DNA from: Bacteroidales bacterium
GTDB lineage: Bacteria > Bacteroidota > Bacteroidia > Bacteroidales > WCHB1-69
Reading direction: 5' to 3'
DNA length: 64,000 nt
NCBI GenBank assembly: GCA_031553535.1
Contig: JAVBLM010000019.1
Location: 154,128 to 218,127 of the forward strand
This document shows positions 2,899 to 63,122 of the stretch, in pieces (the first letter of the stretch is position 1; each line of letters opens with the position of its first letter). A program made the position numbers and the translations under genes. Under the pieces are notes generated by a model. It was given only the letters and a program-made list of their open reading frames with translations. It searched no databases and was not told where the DNA came from.

Positions 2899-3345
2899 CG
2901 GATATACTTTCACCGTATTGTGAAAGTGTTTCGACAGTAGTTTTCATACTTTCACGAAGTAGTGAAAGTATGCCGACAGCAGTTTTCATACTTTCGCAAG
3001 GTAGCGAAAGTGTGCCGACAGTAGTTTTCATACTTTCGCAGGGTAGCGAAAGTGTGCCGACAATGGTTTTCATACTTTCGCAGAGTAGTGAAAGTATGCC
3101 GACAGCAGTTTTCATACTTTCGCAGAGTAGTGAAAGTACGCCGACAGTAGTTTTCATACTTTCGCAGGGTAGTGAAAGTATGCCGACAGCGGTTTTCATA
3201 CTTTCGCAGAGTAGTGAAAGTACGCCGACAGTAGTTTTCATACTTTCGCAGGGTAGTGAAAGTATGCCGACAGCAGTTTTCATACTTTCGCAGAGTAGTG
3301 AAAGTACGCCGACAGTAGTTTTCATACTTTCGCAGTATTATGAAA
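2899..3345. repeat. tandem array A: 42-bp unit x ~10.6, each unit with a 9-bp-stem hairpin
   Basis: The unit is GTTTTCATACTTTCGCAGRGTAGTGAAAGTAYGCCGACAGYA. The anchor TGCCGA occurs at 2971/3013/3055/3097 and onward, exactly 42 apart. The inverted repeat is CATACTTTC/GAAAGTATG. Two unit subtypes alternate in the right half, giving an 84-bp higher-order repeat. The edge units are degenerate. Confidence 0.95.
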
Positions 3346-3692
3346 CCTTCCCCCGATGTATTGGAATAGCTCTGAAACATTTTTTAAAATAAAGCCCAAG
3401 TATCCGGACGATATTAACCTTGTTATCCAAGGCAAATATTTATGCTTATCCTAATCGAAATTCTATCTTCGTTGTAATCGAATGATTATTGATAATGAAA
3501 ATTCTAAAATGAGACTTACATCAATAACACTTTGTTTTAATATTATTACGATTACAAGGGACAAGAAAAAACAACCGAACTTGTTCTAATCGCCTAGCCA
3601 TGAAAGAGAAAGAAAAATTAATCCACAAATCAACTTTTGATAAGTTTATTTGCAAATAAATAGGATCCGGAATATTCCAGGTAAAGACAATT

Positions 3693-13345: not shown

Positions 13346-14167
13346 ATGAACAGGACACAACTTATTGAAACAATACAAAAAAAGAAAAGTTTTTTATGCG
13401 TTGGGCTGGATACCGATATCCAAAAAATCCCAAAACACCTTCTGTCTTATGATGATCCCATCTTTGAGTTCAATAAAGCGATTGTCGATGCTACCCTGCC
13501 CTATACGTTGGCATATAAACCCAACCTGGCCTTTTATGAAGCACAAGGATGGAAAGGTTTACTCAGTTTAGATAAAACAATTGCTTATATCCGTTCCAAA
13601 AAAGAGCCTGTTTTCTTAATCGCAGACGCAAAAAGAGGGGATATCGGAAACACCTCCACCCAATATGCCGTTTCATTCTTCGGGCAAACAGATCCGGACT
13701 ATAATTACGACGCCGTTACGGTTGCCCCATACATGGGAGAAGACAGTATCAAGCCTTTTCTGGAATTTGAAAACAAATGGGTGATTCTTCTTGCGCTTAC
13801 GTCCAATAAAGGGTCGTCCGACTTCCAATTACTCAAATATAAGGATCGTTATCTATTCGAAACCGTGTTGGAAACATCCAGACAGTGGGGAGATGCATCC
13901 AAGTTGATGTATGTGGTTGGGGCAACAAAAGCCGAAATGTTGACCGGCATCCGTAAAATTGTTCCGGATAATTTTTTATTAATCCCCGGAGTGGGAGCAC
14001 AAGGCGGAAATCTGGCAGATGTTGTCAAATATGGTATGAATAAAGATTGCGGATTGATAGTTAATGCTTCCCGCAGCATAATTTATGCCTCTCAAGGGGA
14101 AGATTTTGCCCAAAAAGCAGGTGAAGAAGCCCATACCATGCAACAGGATATGGAGAAATATCTATAA
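13346..14167 (+). CDS. pyrF: orotidine-5'-phosphate decarboxylase (type 2)
   Basis: 273 aa with [17 protein letters not shown] and PGVGAQGG. Confidence 0.88.
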
Positions 14168-14451
14168 TCCGTCTATTTTATAGCTATAAAAGGATTTTAA
14201 CAGCCTCCGGATTGTTATCTCTTCCGGCATTACGCTTGGCTTAACAGGAGTTGCGCAAGTTGATAATTTACACAAAATTATAATTTAGTTGTTGAATTGT
14301 TTATCGTTTACGGTTTACACGTTTACTTCTTGTTGGTTTATCTATTTTATTGGCTTTATCCTTTCTGCCTTCTGCATGTTATTTATTCTCTACACGACTT
14401 CATGCCTACCAATGAAAGAGATTGTATTTCGTTCTGAATAAACCTCTTACC

Positions 14452-14516
14452 GTCATGCTGAACTCGATTCAGCATCCCCTTTTTTTAAGGGGGTTGCGGA
14501 TCAAGTCCGCAATGAC
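14452..14516. repeat. stand-alone copy of the 64-nt four-way-junction (cloverleaf) module
   Basis: The sequence is GTCAT-[GCTGAA CTCGA TTCAGC]-[ATCCCC T7AA GGGGGT]-[TGCGGA TCAAG TCCGCA]-ATGAC. The same module occurs at 17070-17136, 55363-55426 and 55788-55851. Confidence 0.85.
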
Positions 14517-14700
14517 GCTCCTGACAAACAAATTACTGTCATCTTCTCGCTGTTTGATATTTCTCATTGGATATTCGCCGTAATGCGTTTCTGTTAATTC
14601 GGTGCATAACTCGTCATTTATAATTCGTAATTCGTAATTTCTTTCTGCTTGCTGCAATTGTTACCTGTAACTTGTGTGATTTCTGAAAAACTATTACAGA

Positions 14701-15144
14701 TTATTTTTTCTTTCTTTTCCTGACGCGATGCCCCCATTCGGACGGATAGCATTTATGTATCCGGTAAAAGAATTGGGAAAAAGAAACAGCGGATGAAAAA
14801 TTCAGCTTTTTACTGATTTCGGCTATTGGTAAATCCGTTTTTTCCAATAGTTCACAGCTTGCCAGGTCTAGATATCCACATATCCATTCCCGGGCTCCTA
14901 TTCCTGTCATTGCCACAATCGCTGATGAAAAAACTATTGCATCCACACCCATCATTGAAGCGTATCTTTGTGATTGTAAATTACCATATTTATGGATAAG
15001 CTGTGCAAAAAGGTTAATAAAATCATTTCCCGTAAGGCGGTTGCCATTCAATTGGGGTAATCCATCCCTGTTAACAGTAATAGAAGAATCAAGTATCGTA
15101 ATAAACACATCGGAAGGAAGGATTTTCTTGTATTTTGTTTCCAT
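14701..15144 (-). CDS. small AraC-type helix-turn-helix protein (DNA-binding domain only)
   Basis: 147 aa. The C-terminal ~100 aa (LLEKTDLPIAEISKKLNFSSAVSFSQFFYRIHKCYPSEW) fits the AraC/XylS HTH. No recognisable sensor domain is present. Confidence 0.6.
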   Translation of the reverse strand: METKYKKILPSDVFITILDSSITVNRDGLPQLNGNRLTGNDFINLFAQLIHKYGNLQSQRYASMMGVDAIVFSSAIVAMTGIGAREWICGYLDLASCELLEKTDLPIAEISKKLNFSSAVSFSQFFYRIHKCYPSEWGHRVRKRKKK

Positions 15145-15302: not shown

Positions 15303-15492
15303 TTAATGCCGGATATTCAAGCATTAAATATATGTAATAAAAGTTAATGTCAGATATTCGGGCATTAAATATATGTGATAAAAGTTAATGCCGGATATTC
15401 AGGCATTAAATATATATGATAAAAGTTAATGTCAGACATTCAGGCATTAAATATATGTGATAAAAGTTAATGTCAGATATTCGGGCATTATA
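15303..15492. repeat. tandem array F: 41-bp unit x ~4.6 with 8-bp-stem hairpin
   Basis: The unit is TTAATGYCRGAYATTCRGGCATTAAATATATGTGATAAAAG. The anchor TTAATG occurs at 15303/15344/15385/15426/15467. The inverted repeat is TTAATGCC/GGCATTAA. Confidence 0.9.
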
Positions 15493-15953
15493 TATATTAA
15501 AAATAGTTGTAGGAAAATAAATCAATATCCGGGACCTTTTATCTTTTATCCTATGAAAACAAATCAAGGCCGGGAATCTATTGTAGATTATTGCCGGCCA
15601 TTATCTGCTTTCAGGGGATAAATGTTCATTTACAGTATAAAATCAAAATATAACTTCATATCAATGGCGATGTTTTCTTTATTATTTACAGAAGTTATGC
15701 AAGATATAGAAATGATGATTAATTCAAAATCCAAGGAGAAGAATTTAAGAAAAATCTGCGGATACCTGCGAAATCTGCGGGAAAAATATTCAGTGAATAA
15801 TGAATAATGAAAAGTGAATGACAAATAAATCCCCTCAACTCCGCAACCTCGAATCCCGAACCTCAAATCTTGTATTAATTTTTATTTTTTAAAACAATTC
15901 TTTCACTGATTTGTTAATAAGTCTGTAAATATATTTAATAAAATATTCATATT

Positions 15954-16956: not shown

Positions 16957-17225
16957 GAACTTGTCAAAAGTTGATATAAAATAAATAGAGATTATCTCAC
17001 TTCGTTTGATGTACTCATCTGCTTCGGGTTCGGGTGCTTTGTCGTTCCTCCTCACAGTGGCGGAAGTGCGTCATTGCGGACTCGATCCGCAATCCCCTCA
17101 ATAAAGAAGGGGATACTGAAACAAGTTTAGCATGACGGTAACAGGTTTGCTCATTGCGAAAAACGAAGCAACAGAGCTTGCAAGCTCAACGGAGTTAATC
17201 TCCTATCTCAACTTTTGACAAGTTC
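16957..17225. mobile_element. MITE-like element copy 1 (269 bp) with 18-bp terminal inverted repeats
   Basis: Left end GAACTTGTCAAAAGTTGA (16957-16974), right end TCAACTTTTGACAAGTTC (17208-17225). It carries the four-way-junction core at 17070-17136 and has no coding capacity. Confidence 0.8.
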
Positions 17226-17832: not shown

Positions 17833-17968
17833 AGTATAGTGGTTAATGGTTAGTTGTCAGTGATTAGTGTTAACTGCAAATTTTATATTAATTCTTAATT
17901 CTTAATTCTTAATTTCTTAGCAATGACGCTCTTTCGTTTGTTCAGCGTTAATAACTAACCACTAACAA

Positions 17969-25049: not shown

Positions 25050-25072
25050 ATTTATTATCATCAACAAATCGA

Positions 25073-25113
25073 GTAGGAAGAAAACAAAGTAGTTTTCTTC
25101 CTACTTTCGTTTT
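25073..25113 (+). terminator. rho-independent terminator of the zinc-ribbon gene
   Basis: 13-bp perfect stem GTAGGAAGAAAAC / GTTTTCTTCCTAC with a 6-nt loop, followed by TTTCGTTTT. Confidence 0.75.
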
Positions 25114-25203
25114 CCGACCTCTCACACCACCGTACGTGCCGTTCGGCATACGGCGGTTCCTTACTTACGATACAACTTTACGATAACAATCCATCAGAAA
25201 TGG

Positions 25204-25542
25204 CTAGTTGGCTCGTTTGAGATTATCGTTGCTCAAGGCACGACTAAGAATAAAACTATGGGCAATATGCCAATAACCCTTGCGGGTATTAGCCCATTCC
25301 CACGCCTTTCTCTTATCAATACCACAGCGTTTGAGATTCTCAAAGCGGGTCTTCACTCTCTTCCAGCATTTCCAGATACACATACGGAGCCTGCTCCTAT
25401 ACCATTCATTCAATGTTTGAAGACGGTTCTTCATATCTGCCAGCTTGAATACTTCAAGCCAACCCAGTATAAAGGAGCCAAGAGAGCTTTTACGCTTCCC
25501 GTAGCCCAGACCGTTACTACGACCGGTCAATTCCTTTTGCAA
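25204..25542 (-). pseudogene. group II intron reverse transcriptase/maturase, C-terminal (X/maturase) fragment only
   Basis: The 112-aa ORF FILGWLEVFKLADMKNRLQTLNEWYRSRLRMCIWKCWKRVKTRFENLKRCGIDKRKAWEWANTRKGYWHIAHS matches the conserved C-terminus of bacterial intron-encoded proteins. The ~300-aa RT palm/fingers region is absent. Confidence 0.8.
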
Positions 25543-25618
25543 GAATACTATTTTTCCCCTTCTTATTTATCCTTTCATTTTCTTATTATCCTGAAAACTT
25601 TACCGGTTTCGCAGGAAA

Positions 25619-25921
25619 AAGAAAATATTTTACTGTTTGGGATAGACATTTTGGGGGAATCTGAAAACATTTTGCCATTTAGTTTGGATATTTTCAGAAG
25701 ATCCGAAAGCAACAAACCATTTGGTTTGGACGTTTCGGAAGATCCGAAAGAAGCAAACCATTTGGTTTGGACGTTTCGGAAGATCCGAAAGAAGCAAACC
25801 ATTTGGTTTGGACGTTTCGGAAGATCCGAAAGAAGCAAACCATTTGGTTTGGACGTTTCGGAAAGACCCGAAAGAAGCAAACCATTTGGTTTGGACGCTT
25901 CGGAAAGATCCGAAAGAAGCA
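25619..25921. repeat. tandem array B: 41-bp unit x ~7 with nested palindrome, inside the intron remnant
   Basis: The unit is GATCCGAAAGAAGCAAACCATTTGGTTTGGACGTTTCGGAA. The anchor ATCCGAA occurs at 25701/25742/25783/25824. The outer inverted repeat is TCCGAAA/TTTCGGA and the inner palindrome is CAAACCA-TT-TGGTTTG. The leftmost units are degenerate. Confidence 0.92.
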
Positions 25922-26528
25922 TCTATATTATATCGAATATTAAGATAAGTTATGAATGATTTTTCCGGAGAGGTTTATTCTTTATTAATGTCCTATCAGA
26001 ACACTTATCAAACAGGCAGGCCTATATCTGTGAGAGACACACTAAGGGGGATATTATCCGTACTTGAAAAAGTCTCAATTTATACCCCGAACTCACATTA
26101 CAATAAGGTTCTGTCCTTCAATACTTGGTAAGGTTCCTGCTGTACATTTTTTTTCATGGGCAGGCTTGTGTCCGTATCTACTATGGCATCGGCTGACTTC
26201 TCACAGCAAGCTTTATACTCCGTGCTTCCGAAAAAAAACATCCGCACGTCTGTGAGACCTCCCCAGTTAAGATTCTATTCTTTCCATCTTATACCTGCTT
26301 GATTTACCATGAACGTTCCCAATAGCTATGGGGCTTTGTTTTGTTTAGCAAACGATCCCACATTCTTTGGCCTTATATCAAGTTTCTGTGCGTCAGGCCA
26401 GATGTTTGCCGCTGACTTCCTTCAGATTCCTTCTCGCGATAGACACCCTTGTCGTTGGCTATACTCTTCCCGCTATCTGGGCGTGTTTAGGACTTGCACC
26501 TGTTAGAATAAAACCATGCTGAACGAAC

Positions 26529-42521: not shown

Positions 42522-42617
42522 ACTAAATGTTTTTTATACTATTCATACTAAAAGGAGAAAAGTCAAAGGGGAAAAGGAGAAAAAAATTACCGGCAGGCGT
42601 TCAAACTTCATTATATC

Positions 42618-42850
42618 CATCCTTCCGGCCGCCTGCCAACTTTGAGAAGTTGCCGGGTTCCTGTTTGAGATTGAAAACAACCTTCCAGGAGTTCCTGGAT
42701 TCCTGTCTGGGTTTTCCAACAGGCTTTTCCGCACGTGGTATTCCCTGTTTGGACTTTCAAACAGGTTCCCAGGAGTTGCTGGATCCCTATTTGGAATTGA
42801 AAACGACCTTCCGGAAGCTCCTGGATCCTCGCCCGGAATTGAAAACCGGT
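42618..42850. repeat. tandem array C: 42-bp unit x ~5.5 (inverted relative of array D)
   Basis: Anchors at 42660/42702/42744/42786/42828 are all 42 apart. Units contain the palindrome CCAGGA-GT-TCCTGG and a TGTTT..AAACA hairpin. The reverse complement of unit 42660-42701 matches array D unit 54696-54737 at 31/42 positions by hand alignment. Confidence 0.85.
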
Positions 42851-42979
42851 TTTTAAGGCGTTTGAAGCCTTTCAGGAGGATTGGCAAAACACATTCCGGC
42901 CTTCTGGAGCGGTTGCCGGTAAATCCGACATGCCTTTCATGGCCGAAAACACGTTTGCCGGAGGCGGACAATAAGCGGT

Positions 42980-43269: not shown

Positions 43270-43900
43270 CAACTATTTTATTAGCTATATCATTTTTTTA
43301 AAATATTATTATTATTGTAAATACATGTTTCGCTATTTTGATCTATTGGGGAATGCGGCAAAGCAAAACACCTGTAAAAACAGTTGAAAAGAGATTGAAA
43401 TGATTTGCTATCTTCTTATTGTTTTTTTATTGTTGCCCAGCTTTGTTTTTAGCCTTGTGCAAGAGAACATTCATCTTTTTTCTGAACAGTTATTCTCTAT
43501 AGTAAAACAAGCTAATTATAGTTCATTTAATTTGTTTATCCTCTATGTACATGCGATCTATAATATTGAAAAAGATCCGGGAAGATAAGAAAAAAATGCC
43601 ATAACGCCACACAAAGAGAAAGAATTGTTTGTCTTTATTATAGAACTTGTCAAAAGCTGATGATGAAGTTTTTGAATAACGTTATAGCCATCAATTGACA
43701 GAAAACGTTTTTTGAGATTATTTCATGAAACAAAAATTCTTTAATGTAGTTATGAATGAATCAAATTCTTACAATCAAAAAACATCGACAGATTTAAACA
43801 ACTTCATAATCGAAAAAACTTATAAAGAGATATTCCGAGATATTGTTTTACTATTTTTATTATCTCTCATTTCTTTATTCAAACAAGAACACAAAAGTTG

Positions 43901-54446: not shown

Positions 54447-54654
54447 TTGAGAGGATTTAACGTTACAAATTCAAGATTCAACGTTCAAGATTATAAATAA
54501 TTTTTCTGCATTTTATCTATTTTATCTGCTTTATCTGCTTTATCGATTTTATCAGTTTAATTTTTCCCGCAGACCCCGCAGATTTTCCGCAGATTTTTTA
54601 TTGTAAAATTCGCATTACTAATTCTTAATTCTTAATTTTTAATTCTTAATTCTC

Positions 54655-55150
54655 CAGAGCAGGCGTTCAGATGCCTTAGATACCTGCTTGCAATTCCGGA
54701 CAAAGGTTCAGGAACTCCTGAATACCTGTTTTCAATCTCAGACAAGTATCCGGGAAGTCTCGAAACCCTGTTTCCAGTTCCGGACAATGGTTCAGGAAGC
54801 CCTGGAACCCAGTTTGAAAATTCAAACAAGGAATACAAAAGGGGAAAAACCCTGTTTAAAAATCTAAACAGGGAATATCGCAGATGGAAAACCCTGTTTG
54901 AAAATCCAAACAAGGAATTCCACAGGAGGAAAACCCTGTTTGAAAATTCAAACAGGTAATACCATGACAAAGACTGCCTGTTTGAAAATCAAAACAGGAT
55001 TCATTACGGCAAAGACTGCCTGTTTAAAAATAAAAACAGGGTACATTACGACAAAGGCTGCCTGTTTAGAAATAAAAACAGGGTACACTATGACAAAGGC
55101 TGCCTGTTTGAAAATCAAAACAGGGTCTGTTGCAATGGAAAGAACCGGGA
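54655..55150. repeat. tandem array D: 42-bp unit x ~11.8, two diverged sub-families in one strict register
   Basis: CCTG anchors at 54683, 54725, 54767, 54851, 54893, 54935, 54977, 55019, 55061 and 55103 are all multiples of 42 apart. The right-hand units are GCCTGTTTGAAAATCAAAACAGG+19 nt (inverted repeat CCTGTTT/AAACAGG). The left-hand units carry the palindrome TTCAGGA-AC-TCCTGAA. Confidence 0.93.
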
Positions 55151-55207: not shown

Positions 55208-55500
55208 GAACTTGTCAAAAGTTGACACAAGAATCGATCTTTTGTCAGGGATTATCTCACTACGTTTCGATGCTCTCACCTGCTTCGCGCTCGGGTGCCA
55301 CGTCGCTCGTGCCTCATTCCTGCCTGACAGAGATCAGACCTCGCTCTTAATAACATATTGCCGTCATGCTGAACTTGTTTCAGCATCCCCGTTTTTAAGG
55401 GGATTGCGGATCAAGTCCGCAATGACGCTCTTAACTAATATATTACCATTATCATTTGCGATGAACGAAGTAATCCCTTAAATCAACTTTTGACAACTTT
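55208..55500. mobile_element. MITE-like element copy 2 (293 bp)
   Basis: Left end GAACTTGTCAAAAGTTGA (55208-55225), right end TCAACTTTTGACAAC (55483-55497). The four-way-junction core at 55363-55426 is inverted relative to copies 1 and 3, while the left subterminal arm (TTATCTCACTAC..GATGC.CTCACCTGCTTCGCG) keeps the same orientation. Confidence 0.78.
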
Positions 55501-55673: not shown

Positions 55674-56009
55674 GAACTTGTCAAAAGTTGATATAAAATG
55701 AATAAAGGTTATCTCACTACATGTCGATGCACTCACCTGCTTCGCGTCCGGATGCTTCGTCGTTCCTCCTTACAATGGCGGAAGTGTGTCATTGCGGACT
55801 TGATCCGCAATCCCCTTAAAAACGGGGATGCTGAAACAAGTTCAGCATGACGGTAGCAGGTTTATTCAGAGCGAGAACCGAAATCCGAAGGATTCGGTAT
55901 AGCCAACCACCCGAGCCACGGAGTGTAGCGATTGCATCGACACGTAGCGAGATAACCGAACTTGCGAGCTCAATGGAGTTAACCTCCGGTATCAACTTTT
56001 GACAAGTTC
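55674..56009. mobile_element. MITE-like element copy 3 (336 bp)
   Basis: Perfect 18-bp terminal inverted repeats (55674-55691 and 55992-56009). It has ~30-bp subterminal inverted repeats (GGTTATCTCACTACATGTCGATGCA / TGCATCGACACGTAGCGAGATAACC) and the core at 55788-55851. Confidence 0.82.
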
Positions 56010-62469: not shown

Positions 62470-62855
62470 TTCCCCCTGTAACATCTGTATAAACCTTTCC
62501 GAGAACTGGGACACCTATAAACGAGAGTAAATATATCTTTCCCAGAATTGGGACACCTATAAACGAGGATAAATATACCTTTCCCAGAGTTGGGACACCT
62601 ATAAACGAGGATGAATATACCTTTCCCAGGATTGGGATACCTCTAAACGAGAGTGAATATATCTTTCCCAGGATTGGGATACCTCTAAACGAGAGTGAAT
62701 ATATCTTTCCCAGGATTGGGATACCTCTAAACGAGGATAAATATACCTCTCCCAGAGTTGGGACACCTCTAAACGAGGGTGAATATACCTTTCCCAGGGT
62801 TGGGATACCTCCAAACGAGAGTGAATATATCTTTCCCAGAGCTGGGAAACATTCA
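62470..62855. repeat. tandem array E: 42-bp unit x ~9 with short palindrome
   Basis: The unit is CTTTCCCAGRRTTGGGAYACCTMTAAACGAGRRTRAATATAY. The anchor TCCCAG occurs at 62540/62582/62624/62666/62708/62750/62792/62834. The palindrome is TCCCA-GAAT-TGGGA. Confidence 0.93.
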
Positions 62856-63122
62856 TGCAAGAGTGCGGACATGTTGACAAAAGGACAATTCTTTTTAACA
62901 TTATTATTCCCCTCTGTTTAATTTTCTATTATTGGCCACTACCAATGATGCTTTTTCATTTGTTCTGTGTTATTTACCATTGATCATTATTTCTATAACT
63001 TCTATTGCCTGGAAGATCTTAATATCATCATTTCTGTTGTCATTTTACTATATCAACTTTGAACAAGTTCGAATGAAAAAATAGTGTATTTTTGTAATCC
63101 TTAACTATCGGTATATAAGCTT

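Follow-up and report, generated by a model that had tools for sequence, protein, structure and literature searches.

What kind of repeat can carry its core in either orientation while the sequence around that core keeps its own? The question is raised by a small family of elements in a Bacteroidales MAG, three full copies of which lie in the window (the whole stretch of 64 kb that was analysed). An earlier note on this DNA described the family as MITE-like and proposed that the core, reversed in one copy, had been placed by nested insertion of an independently mobile core or turned round by inversion across its own symmetric arms. We attribute the pattern, with a probability of roughly 0.62, to a composite of two repeat systems: a lineage-specific palindromic frame bounded by terminal inverted repeats (TIRs), and a separately acquired or replaced dimer of CGTC-2-type REPs at the apex of that palindrome. 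All comparisons of units, dimers and frames reported below cover eight REP units, four dimers and three frames within the 64-kb window (Table 1).

Table 1. Positions of the frame copies, REP units, frame-less module, direct repeats and truncated ends in the window.
Feature	Position	Strand	Description
Truncated end	3618-3647	-	TIR with 2 mismatches and ~12 nt of subterminal homology
Frame-less module	14400-14543	+	144 bp; unit B 14451-14478 (+), unit A 14490-14517 (-); 80% identical to copy 2 interior
Copy 1	16957-17225	+	269 bp; left TIR 16957-16974, left arm, REP dimer 17069-17137, tail, right arm, right TIR 17208-17225
Copy 1, REP unit A	17069-17096	+	CGTC-ATTGCGGA-CTCGA-TCCGCAAT-CCC; regex scan for tag plus hairpin
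Copy 1, REP unit B	17110-17137	-	CGTC-ATGCTAAA-CTTGT-TTCAGTAT-CCC; stem decayed, one G.T pair and one A.C mismatch
Truncated left end	43643-43685	+	TIR with 1 mismatch, spacer and arm start
Copy 2	55208-55500	+	293 bp; left TIR 55208-55225, L-type left frame to ~55314, module of the 14400-14543 type ~55314-55453 with the REP dimer reversed inside it, short right frame, degenerate right TIR 55483-55500
Copy 2, direct repeat, left copy	55343-55362	+	GCTCTTAATAACATATTGCC; imperfect 21-bp repeat, abuts dimer
Copy 2, REP unit B	55362-55389	+	CGTC-ATGCTGAA-CTTGT-TTCAGCAT-CCC
Copy 2, REP unit A	55400-55427	-	CGTC-ATTGCGGA-CTTGA-TCCGCAAT-CCC
Copy 2, direct repeat, right copy	55427-55447	+	GCTCTTAACTAATATATTACC; local alignment score 14 against left copy, 18/21 matches
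Copy 3	55674-56009	+	336 bp; TIRs 55674-55691 and 55992-56009, left arm, REP dimer 55787-55852, tail 55852-55872, extra 75-bp segment
Copy 3, REP unit A	55787-55814	+	tag mutated to TGTC
Copy 3, REP unit B	55825-55852	-	regex scan
Truncated end	63039-63070	-	TIR with 2 mismatches and ~14 nt of subterminal homology

The outer frame is most easily recognised by its ends. Three copies with shared 18-bp termini had been placed at 16957-17225, 55208-55500 and 55674-56009, and these boundaries hold: the 18-mer GAACTTGTCAAAAGTTGA is free of mismatches at five termini out of six, and at the sixth, the right end of copy 2, two positions differ. When up to three mismatches are allowed the 18-mer is found nine times in the window, compared to 0.10 times expected from shuffles. 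The terminus carries a palindrome of its own (AACTT-N5-AAGTT), and a three-way alignment shows a left subterminal arm, TTATCTCACT...CTGCTTCG, common to all three copies; both features had been described in the earlier note and both are present. Left and right arms are imperfect inverted repeats of each other. Copy 3 has an extra segment of 75 bp, missing from copy 1, within which a second, inverted left arm is found (55930-55957 against 55707-55734 in self-BLAST). Folded as single-stranded DNA, each of the three full copies is predicted to form one long hairpin in which TIR pairs with TIR and arm with arm, leaving the REP dimer at the apex (copy 1, -54.1 kcal/mol, z = -7.7; copy 2, -46.4 kcal/mol, z = -5.1; copy 3, -75.5 kcal/mol, z = -8.1).

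Identity among the copies is unevenly distributed. The TIRs match at 18 of 18 positions at five of the six ends and the dimers are 87-98.5% identical, whereas the frames agree at 74-86% and the sequences flanking the dimer at just 33-75%. Two conserved islands, the TIRs and the dimer, in a diverged background are what would be expected of two separate selfish or functional modules. All copies are intergenic, positioned downstream of, or between, co-directional or convergent genes. The terminus-like words reported at 43643-43660, 3630-3647 and 63053-63070 are also real, and self-BLAST extends them into truncated ends with 12-27 nt of homology past the 18-mer (~30-45 nt in total), scattered over other intergenic regions. 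Minisatellites of 41-42 bp adjoin TIR words outside the copies; no tandem array was detected by TRF inside any of the three copies, the arrays being external in every case. A composite element made of minisatellite plus TIR was rejected: there is no opposite end upstream of the arrays, and the proximity remains an association.

With its 18-bp TIRs, length of 269-336 bp, non-coding sequence and long predicted hairpin, the frame family looks MITE-like, and the label used in the earlier note stands insofar as it refers to TIRs, small size and lack of coding capacity. Less in keeping with that label, a candidate target-site duplication (TSD) is confined to copy 1 and no autonomous partner was found. 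The candidate is an 8-bp sequence, AGATAAAA, located 2 bp outside both TIRs, with a chance probability of ~0.2-0.4%; the same check revealed nothing at copies 2 and 3, whose flanks share only 4-mers. Pfam scans of 30 ORFs bore out the claim that the window contains no transposase, and no Y1_Tnp or HUH domain was present in any scanned ORF. The other ORFs belong to housekeeping neighbourhoods, as judged from the Pfam calls of neighbouring genes together with ORF size or position.

The search for an autonomous element with the same termini, proposed in the earlier note, returned none in the window and matches at chance level in public collections. Among GTDB species-representative genomes, exact GAACTTGTCAAAAGTTGA occurs as 16 single matches in unrelated taxa, where ~17 are expected by chance (2 x 596 Gb / 4^18). 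JGI metagenomes contain 35 single matches, none with arm homology, and IMG/VR contains two. Plasmid and phage collections hold no homologue of the frame: only the REP units find matches there. Among 5.8 billion proteins none is homologous to an ORF that runs across the copies; neither the 98-aa ORF of copy 2, nor a query of 1,928 residues in which 17 of the 18 six-frame translations of the three copies were joined, had a match in that set at E up to 10. The chance-level frequency of the TIR and the lack of any frame homologue mean that, as far as these collections show, the frame is specific to this Bacteroidales lineage. As a family, the frame is new and limited to this lineage; the class of core that it carries, and the occurrence of REP dimers in longer palindromes, are already published.

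Related genomes and independent assemblies complete the picture of distribution. The nearest relatives by ABC-F protein (80-84% identity) are MAGs assigned to 'Bacteroidales' and 'Lentimicrobiaceae', one of them from a termite-gut assembly. In related-species loci (80-82% ABC-F protein identity) there are no copies, and no synteny at the insertion sites. Copy 1 is unchanged in Logan contig L001; other Logan contigs, from two samples, end inside repeats or minisatellites, and no empty site was found in the Logan contigs from two samples. On the left side, beyond the window, the Logan contigs reveal one giant adhesin-like gene.

It is necessary to ask whether the frame is a mobile element at all. 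The palindrome might instead have been selected by the host, as a protein-binding site, as an element acting on transcript ends or stability, or as a REP cluster with co-amplified flanks, an arrangement that has been described (PMC3733652); the 18-mers would in that case be operator-like sites and not ends recognised by a transposase. In favor of this, the terminus has its own palindrome, TSDs are inconsistent, the window lacks a cognate IS, the TIR is found publicly at chance frequency and all copies are intergenic. Nevertheless, perfect termini enclosing an interior of 74-86% identity are a typical MITE signature, truncated ends are scattered across intergenic space and copy 1 is flanked by an 8-bp direct repeat; we consider host selection of the frame improbable.

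The core at the apex is of a different nature. The earlier note gave its size as 64 nt; the existence of the core is confirmed, with a measured length of 66-69 nt. It comprises two hairpins whose tags point outward, that is, a head-to-head heterodimer. Unit A reads CGTC-ATTGCGGA-CTTGA-TCCGCAAT-CCC, and unit B, on the opposite strand, CGTC-ATGCTGAA-CTTGT-TTCAGCAT-CCC. The spacer between the two is 10-13 nt, and the CCC/GGG tails pair (CCCC-loop-GGGG) round an A/T-rich loop to give a third, central hairpin: the result is a compact unit of three hairpins.

The tag is CGTC in seven of the eight units and TGTC in the eighth (unit A of copy 3). Stems are invariably 8 bp in length with AT at the start; six are perfect, and positions that depart from Watson-Crick pairing are found in unit B of copy 1 (two) and unit A of the frame-less module (one). 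Every loop has 5 nt (CTTGA, CTCGA or CTTGT), and every tail is a paired CCC, compared to the unpaired CCA of the published consensus. All four pairs are head-to-head heterodimers, with the dimer of copy 1 being 87-88% identical to those of the other copies.

These properties correspond closely to a known class. CGTC REPs are defined as stem-loops tagged at one end by CGTC, with TGTC and CCTC accepted as variants; in the CGTC-2 type the stem is 8 bp with A and T as its first two positions, the loop is 5 nt and a short unpaired 3-nt tail is mostly CCA (Di Nocera, De Gregorio & Rocco 2013, BMC Genomics 14:522, PMC3733652). They occur mostly as head-to-head dimers, among which heterodimers dominate in CGTC-2, and their spacers may hold stem-loops (PMC3733652). 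Because the tag, the 8-bp stem starting with AT, the 5-nt loop, the 3-nt tail and the outward pairing are the defining features of CGTC and CGTC-2 REPs, the sequence makes it very likely that the core is a dimer of CGTC-tagged REPs of the CGTC-2 type. A core of this kind is already published, and it is pseudo-symmetric by construction.

Strong predicted folds could also be read as the mark of a structured non-coding RNA gene or of a ribozyme-bearing retroelement, comprising the core or the whole element, particularly as the three hairpins appear to be closed by a GTCAT/ATGAC stem in the manner of a four-way junction. The 'closing stem', however, is nothing other than the two outward CGTC tags plus the first bases of their stems, and the core is found in both orientations relative to flanking genes. 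Moreover, no Rfam family matches the elements, whether the gathering threshold or a permissive limit of E up to 10 is applied; a spurious miRNA, at 19.7 bits, scores highest. An RNA gene or ribozyme is accordingly a very poor candidate.

Matches to the REP units extend well beyond the Bacteroidales. Unit B is found over 27-28 nt at 96-100% identity on plasmids of Novosphingobium and Sphingobium, including p1 of Novosphingobium sp. ES2-1, and REPs of Novosphingobium have the same stem and loop as unit B, the stem being shared by REPs on Treponema plasmids as well. On pNL2 of N. aromaticivorans, which is a named CGTC-2 host (PMC3733652), unit B is again part of a head-to-head dimer, there with a CCA tail. 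The whole dimer aligns to pTS1 of Treponema saccharophilum at 79% over 66 nt. In IMG/VR unit B matches 53 loci with 57 distinct sites: the tag is CGTC or TGTC at all but one (GGTC), a head-to-head partner with a different stem lies 9-57 nt away at 30 of the 57, and the tail is CCA at 32. Unit A matches two IMG/VR contigs. A similar pair of hairpins was met by chance at a Zixibacteria locus. A literature search with the literal hairpin sequences returned nothing relevant. Published hosts of CGTC REPs are Proteobacteria, Chlorobi, Bacteroidetes, Spirochaetes and Thermotogae (PMC3733652).

Resemblance to the published CGTC-2 REPs (PMC3733652) embraces the CGTC/TGTC tag, the AT-start 8-bp stem, the 5-nt loop and the 3-nt tail, as well as head-to-head heterodimers with a structured spacer, an extragenic location between co-directional or convergent genes and the lack of an associated transposase. 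The elements described here differ in that the tails are CCC and mutually paired (not CCA), the spacer is 10-13 nt within a 66-69-nt unit, the host is a Bacteroidales MAG and the dimers lie within a larger, TIR-bounded element. Location inside a longer palindrome has precedents: CGTC-1 dimers of H. neapolitanus are found in 41-bp palindromes, and GTAG-15 dimers of A. variabilis in long ones (PMC3733652). There, as here, the REP dimer is central to a longer palindromic repeat and no 'empty' palindromes were found. The present frame is distinguished by its length (~200-270 bp), 18-bp TIRs, asymmetric arms, dimers in both orientations and truncated ends elsewhere.

Other modular repeats offer more distant parallels. 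The BIMEs of E. coli and the BOX elements of pneumococcus are intergenic mosaics, modular in construction, in which REP-like palindromes alternate in orientation; they have no sequence relationship to the elements studied here, and they lack a frame with 18-bp TIRs. REPINs are REP doublets of the GTAG type that are linked to a gene for a REP-associated tyrosine transposase (RAYT) and mobilised by such enzymes. Like the core, a REPIN consists of two REP hairpins in inverted arrangement, behaves as a unit and has the alternative of folding into a single long hairpin; the tag here is CGTC, not GTAG, and the window contains no RAYT or HUH gene. [quoted passage not shown] Within the Bacteroidales, the BrickBuilt MITE of Porphyromonas gingivalis is likewise a composite, MITE-like element; it is restricted to one species, lies between genes in every case and is associated with minisatellites (Klein et al. 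2015, PMC4596501). In BrickBuilt a 23-nt minisatellite lies between leader and tail, whereas here the interior is a REP dimer.

The orientation of the core can now be considered. Self-BLAST aligns positions 108-191 of copy 1 to 55432-55352 at 86%: the core of copy 2 runs opposite to those of copies 1 and 3, as their reverse complement. Each arm repeats the other in inverted form, and insertion of a complete element back to front might for that reason pass for reversal of the core alone, the symmetry of the arms giving the illusion of a fixed frame; positions 1-225 of copy 2 do align to the reverse complement of positions 109-336 of copy 3 at 72%. Outside the dimer, however, that reverse alignment is weak. 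Aligned to the left frames of copies 1 and 3, the left frame of copy 2 (excluding the TIR) scores 32-36 (72-74%), and the match includes an L-specific stretch, CACCTGCTTCGCG.TCGGGTGC; aligned to the reverse complement of the right frame of copy 3, it scores only 11 (61%). The L-type match exceeds the reverse match by such an extent that the left frame of copy 2 must keep its orientation while the core is reversed, just as the earlier note had claimed. Backward insertion of a whole element is largely refuted and deserves almost no weight.

A fourth core provides the key comparison. Located at 14451-14517, and absent from the earlier note, it has no TIRs or arms around it in self-BLAST. Its neighbours are convergent: an OMP decarboxylase gene (13346-14167, + strand) and an AraC-type HTH gene (14701-15144, - strand). 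Its downstream flank bears a weak likeness to an arm (z = 3.9 in a set of 24 tests), which was rejected, the orientation being wrong for a frame of this core. When the four cores are aligned in one orientation, the dimer and a tail of ~25 nt, GGTARNAGGTTTATTCAGAGCGA, are common to all. The core is a unit independent of the frame, because it exists as a frame-less copy and its hairpin units are present in many unrelated genomes.

The interior of copy 2 proved to be related to this frame-less module. Positions 107-246 of copy 2 are collinear with 14400-14543 at 80% over 140 bp, on both sides of the dimer, and homology of copy 2 to the frames of copies 1 and 3 is found in positions 1-109 and 249-292; the breakpoints of the module coincide with the frame boundaries. 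Over the 28 nt that border the dimer next to unit A, copy 2 shares 41-45% identity with copies 1 and 3 (45% with copy 3) compared to 68% with the frame-less module.

Loop inversions bounded by inverted repeats are well known, minute inversions in chloroplast DNA being an example. By analogy, the inverted arms within one element might have recombined, or allowed template-switching during replication, and so have flipped the apex in situ: every copy is a long imperfect palindrome with the core at its apex, and the dimers of copies 2 and 3 are identical at 65 of 66 positions though oppositely oriented. Against this, outside the dimer and its ~25-nt tail the arm-to-dimer sequence of copy 2 does not correspond to that of copies 1 and 3 read in reverse complement (the 41-45% given above), the interior is collinear with the frame-less module on both sides, and an exchange of this kind would call for a long right arm, which copy 2 does not have. 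Since the interiors of copies 1 and 3, when reverse-complemented, do not give that of copy 2, inversion in situ is disfavored and separate acquisition or replacement is favored; the mismatch on the unit-A side, together with the collinearity to the frame-less module, means that a simple flip of an interior of the copy 1 and 3 type cannot yield copy 2. We hold a flip in situ to be unlikely. The earlier note had itself stated that copy 2 would speak against inversion if it were a chimera of two adjacent, separately bounded elements, and the breakpoints of copy 2 do reveal a separate version of the module within the frame. Of its two explanations, the independent core is supported by the frame-less copy and the units in unrelated genomes; inversion across the symmetric arms of the core is not supported.

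Copies 2 and 3 warrant a further comment. Their near-identical dimers are 425 bp apart and inverted, while their frames are only 76% identical. This suggests gene conversion between neighbors, or recent arrival from a common source; as the 65/66 identity fits conversion between neighbors equally well, the history of the dimer is blurred. The dimer of copy 2 is also abutted by the imperfect 21-bp direct repeat listed in Table 1. As a general TSD of CGTC dimers the repeat was rejected: the score of 14 is reached only in copy 2, the frame-less module gives a weak score (6), and the repeat is absent from copies 1 and 3 and from 32 IMG/VR dimers.

A composite of frame and dimer accommodates these observations as follows. 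The outer frame would be a non-coding palindromic element with 18-bp TIRs, any whole copy of which could fold to a hairpin or cruciform, and its apex would hold the compact head-to-head CGTC-2-type heterodimer. Being pseudo-symmetric and independent of the frame, the dimer can sit in either orientation. Copy 2 would carry a different version of the dimer module, the type seen at 14400-14543, in the orientation opposite to that of copies 1 and 3; the module at the apex would have been acquired separately or replaced, by insertion or by gene conversion, with no flip in situ. The odds, in our judgement, lie somewhat on the side of such nested acquisition or replacement of the dimer. No empty frame (TIR-arm-arm-TIR without a dimer) was seen among the three frames in the window, and insertion into a pre-existing frame is for this reason something that we infer rather than observe. 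The dimer may have reached the apex by REP-type single-strand mobilisation or by conversion. As for the frame, its conserved termini would be consistent with movement by a trans-acting transposase that recognises the TIRs. A role at the level of the host, for example as an RNA or DNA hairpin affecting transcript ends, is conceivable.

The composite nature of these elements has practical consequences. Recognising the core as a REP dimer means that it need not be mistaken for a novel invertible switch, for a ribozyme or for an sRNA. It is also of note to those who assemble such genomes that these repeats break short-read assemblies exactly at the repeat positions, as the Logan contigs show.

The wider interest lies in the REPs themselves. 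CGTC-tagged REPs are present in several phyla, yet no enzyme that mobilises them is known and there is no agreed function. Where, as here, dimers lie either way round at the tip of a repeat bounded by TIRs, the movement of REPs could become easier to date relative to their carrier; the frame-less copy, along with dimers that are nearly identical although their frames have diverged, could assist in working out which targets REPs prefer. A more specific proposal, which we advance tentatively and regard as a long shot, is that the apex of the lineage-specific palindrome is a preferred landing site, or a conversion hot-spot, for CGTC dimers in either orientation. If true, the near-identity of the dimers in copies 2 and 3 and the 21-bp direct repeat of copy 2 would be footprints of recent CGTC-REP mobility, and this genome would be a natural system in which to learn how CGTC REPs move.

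The REP dimers at the cores of copies 2 and 3 (head-to-head pairs of CGTC-tagged hairpins; 55362-55427 and 55787-55852, respectively) are identical at 65 of 66 positions and lie in inverted orientation in these two neighboring elements. Outside the dimers, the frames formed by the terminal inverted repeats (TIRs) and arms share 76% identity, and the immediate flanks just 45-66%. Such a sharp step in identity suggests that the two dimers underwent gene conversion or came recently from a common source. Both tags of the copy 2 dimer are directly abutted by an imperfect direct repeat of 21 bp (18/21; 55343-55362 and 55427-55447), which was not seen flanking other CGTC dimers.

The surrounding intergenic DNA holds further repetitive sequence. 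Short runs of a heptamer microsatellite (TTAATTC / TAATTCT / TAATTCG) occur at 17888-17919, 54619-54653 and ~14615-14640, sharing intergenic regions with copy 1, copy 2 and the frame-less module, which holds a REP dimer devoid of TIRs and arms. Downstream of that module, positions 14592-14682 weakly resemble a frame arm (z = 3.9 among 24 tests). The match is oriented in a way incompatible with the module, and the stretch may be what is left of another, heavily decayed copy.

The window also contains six intergenic minisatellites with a period of 41-42 bp. Each unit includes a short palindrome, and unit sequences differ among the six arrays; the arrays at ~42600-42920 and 54683-55002 are related to each other (64-73%), in inverted orientation. 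At four TIR sites in the window, namely the truncated ends at 3630, 43643 and 63053 and the left TIR of copy 2 at 55208, an array lies 60-430 bp away. A search upstream of the arrays for the opposite end of a possible composite element, made up of array and TIR word, found none. One array sits inside a group II intron of only ~1.4 kb, where it occupies the usual position of the intron ORF; no reverse-transcriptase ORF was detected in this intron. Directly outside the left end of the window, a neighboring sequence (L066) encodes a giant protein that contains cadherin-like, Ig-like and FG-GAP repeats.

Coordinates of minisatellite arrays, the group II intron and the giant-protein gene.
Feature	Sequence	Position	Strand	Details
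Minisatellite array	Window	2920-3335
Minisatellite array	Window	15303-15497
Minisatellite array	Window	25675-25921		41 bp x 6
Minisatellite array	Window	~42600-42920
Minisatellite array	Window	54683-55126
Minisatellite array	Window	62489-62847
Group II intron	Window	25068-26443	-	Rfam D1-D4-3, 133 bits; D5/D6 model, 46 bits
Giant-protein gene	L066	2091-12024		>4,245 aa

Two further observations concern IMG/VR contigs. Near position 2750 of the unrelated viral contig L076 (IMGVR_UViG_3300025132_008480), a CGTC REP dimer is flanked by a 13-bp inverted repeat, GGTCATCACCCGC / GCGGGTGATGACC, and is thereby a further example of a REP dimer in a palindrome. In L026 (7410-7480), two tandem partial copies, GTCATTGCaaaaaaatcgt twice, precede unit A, one of the two hairpins of the dimer, an arrangement suggestive of local slippage at the REP or of partial duplications in series.
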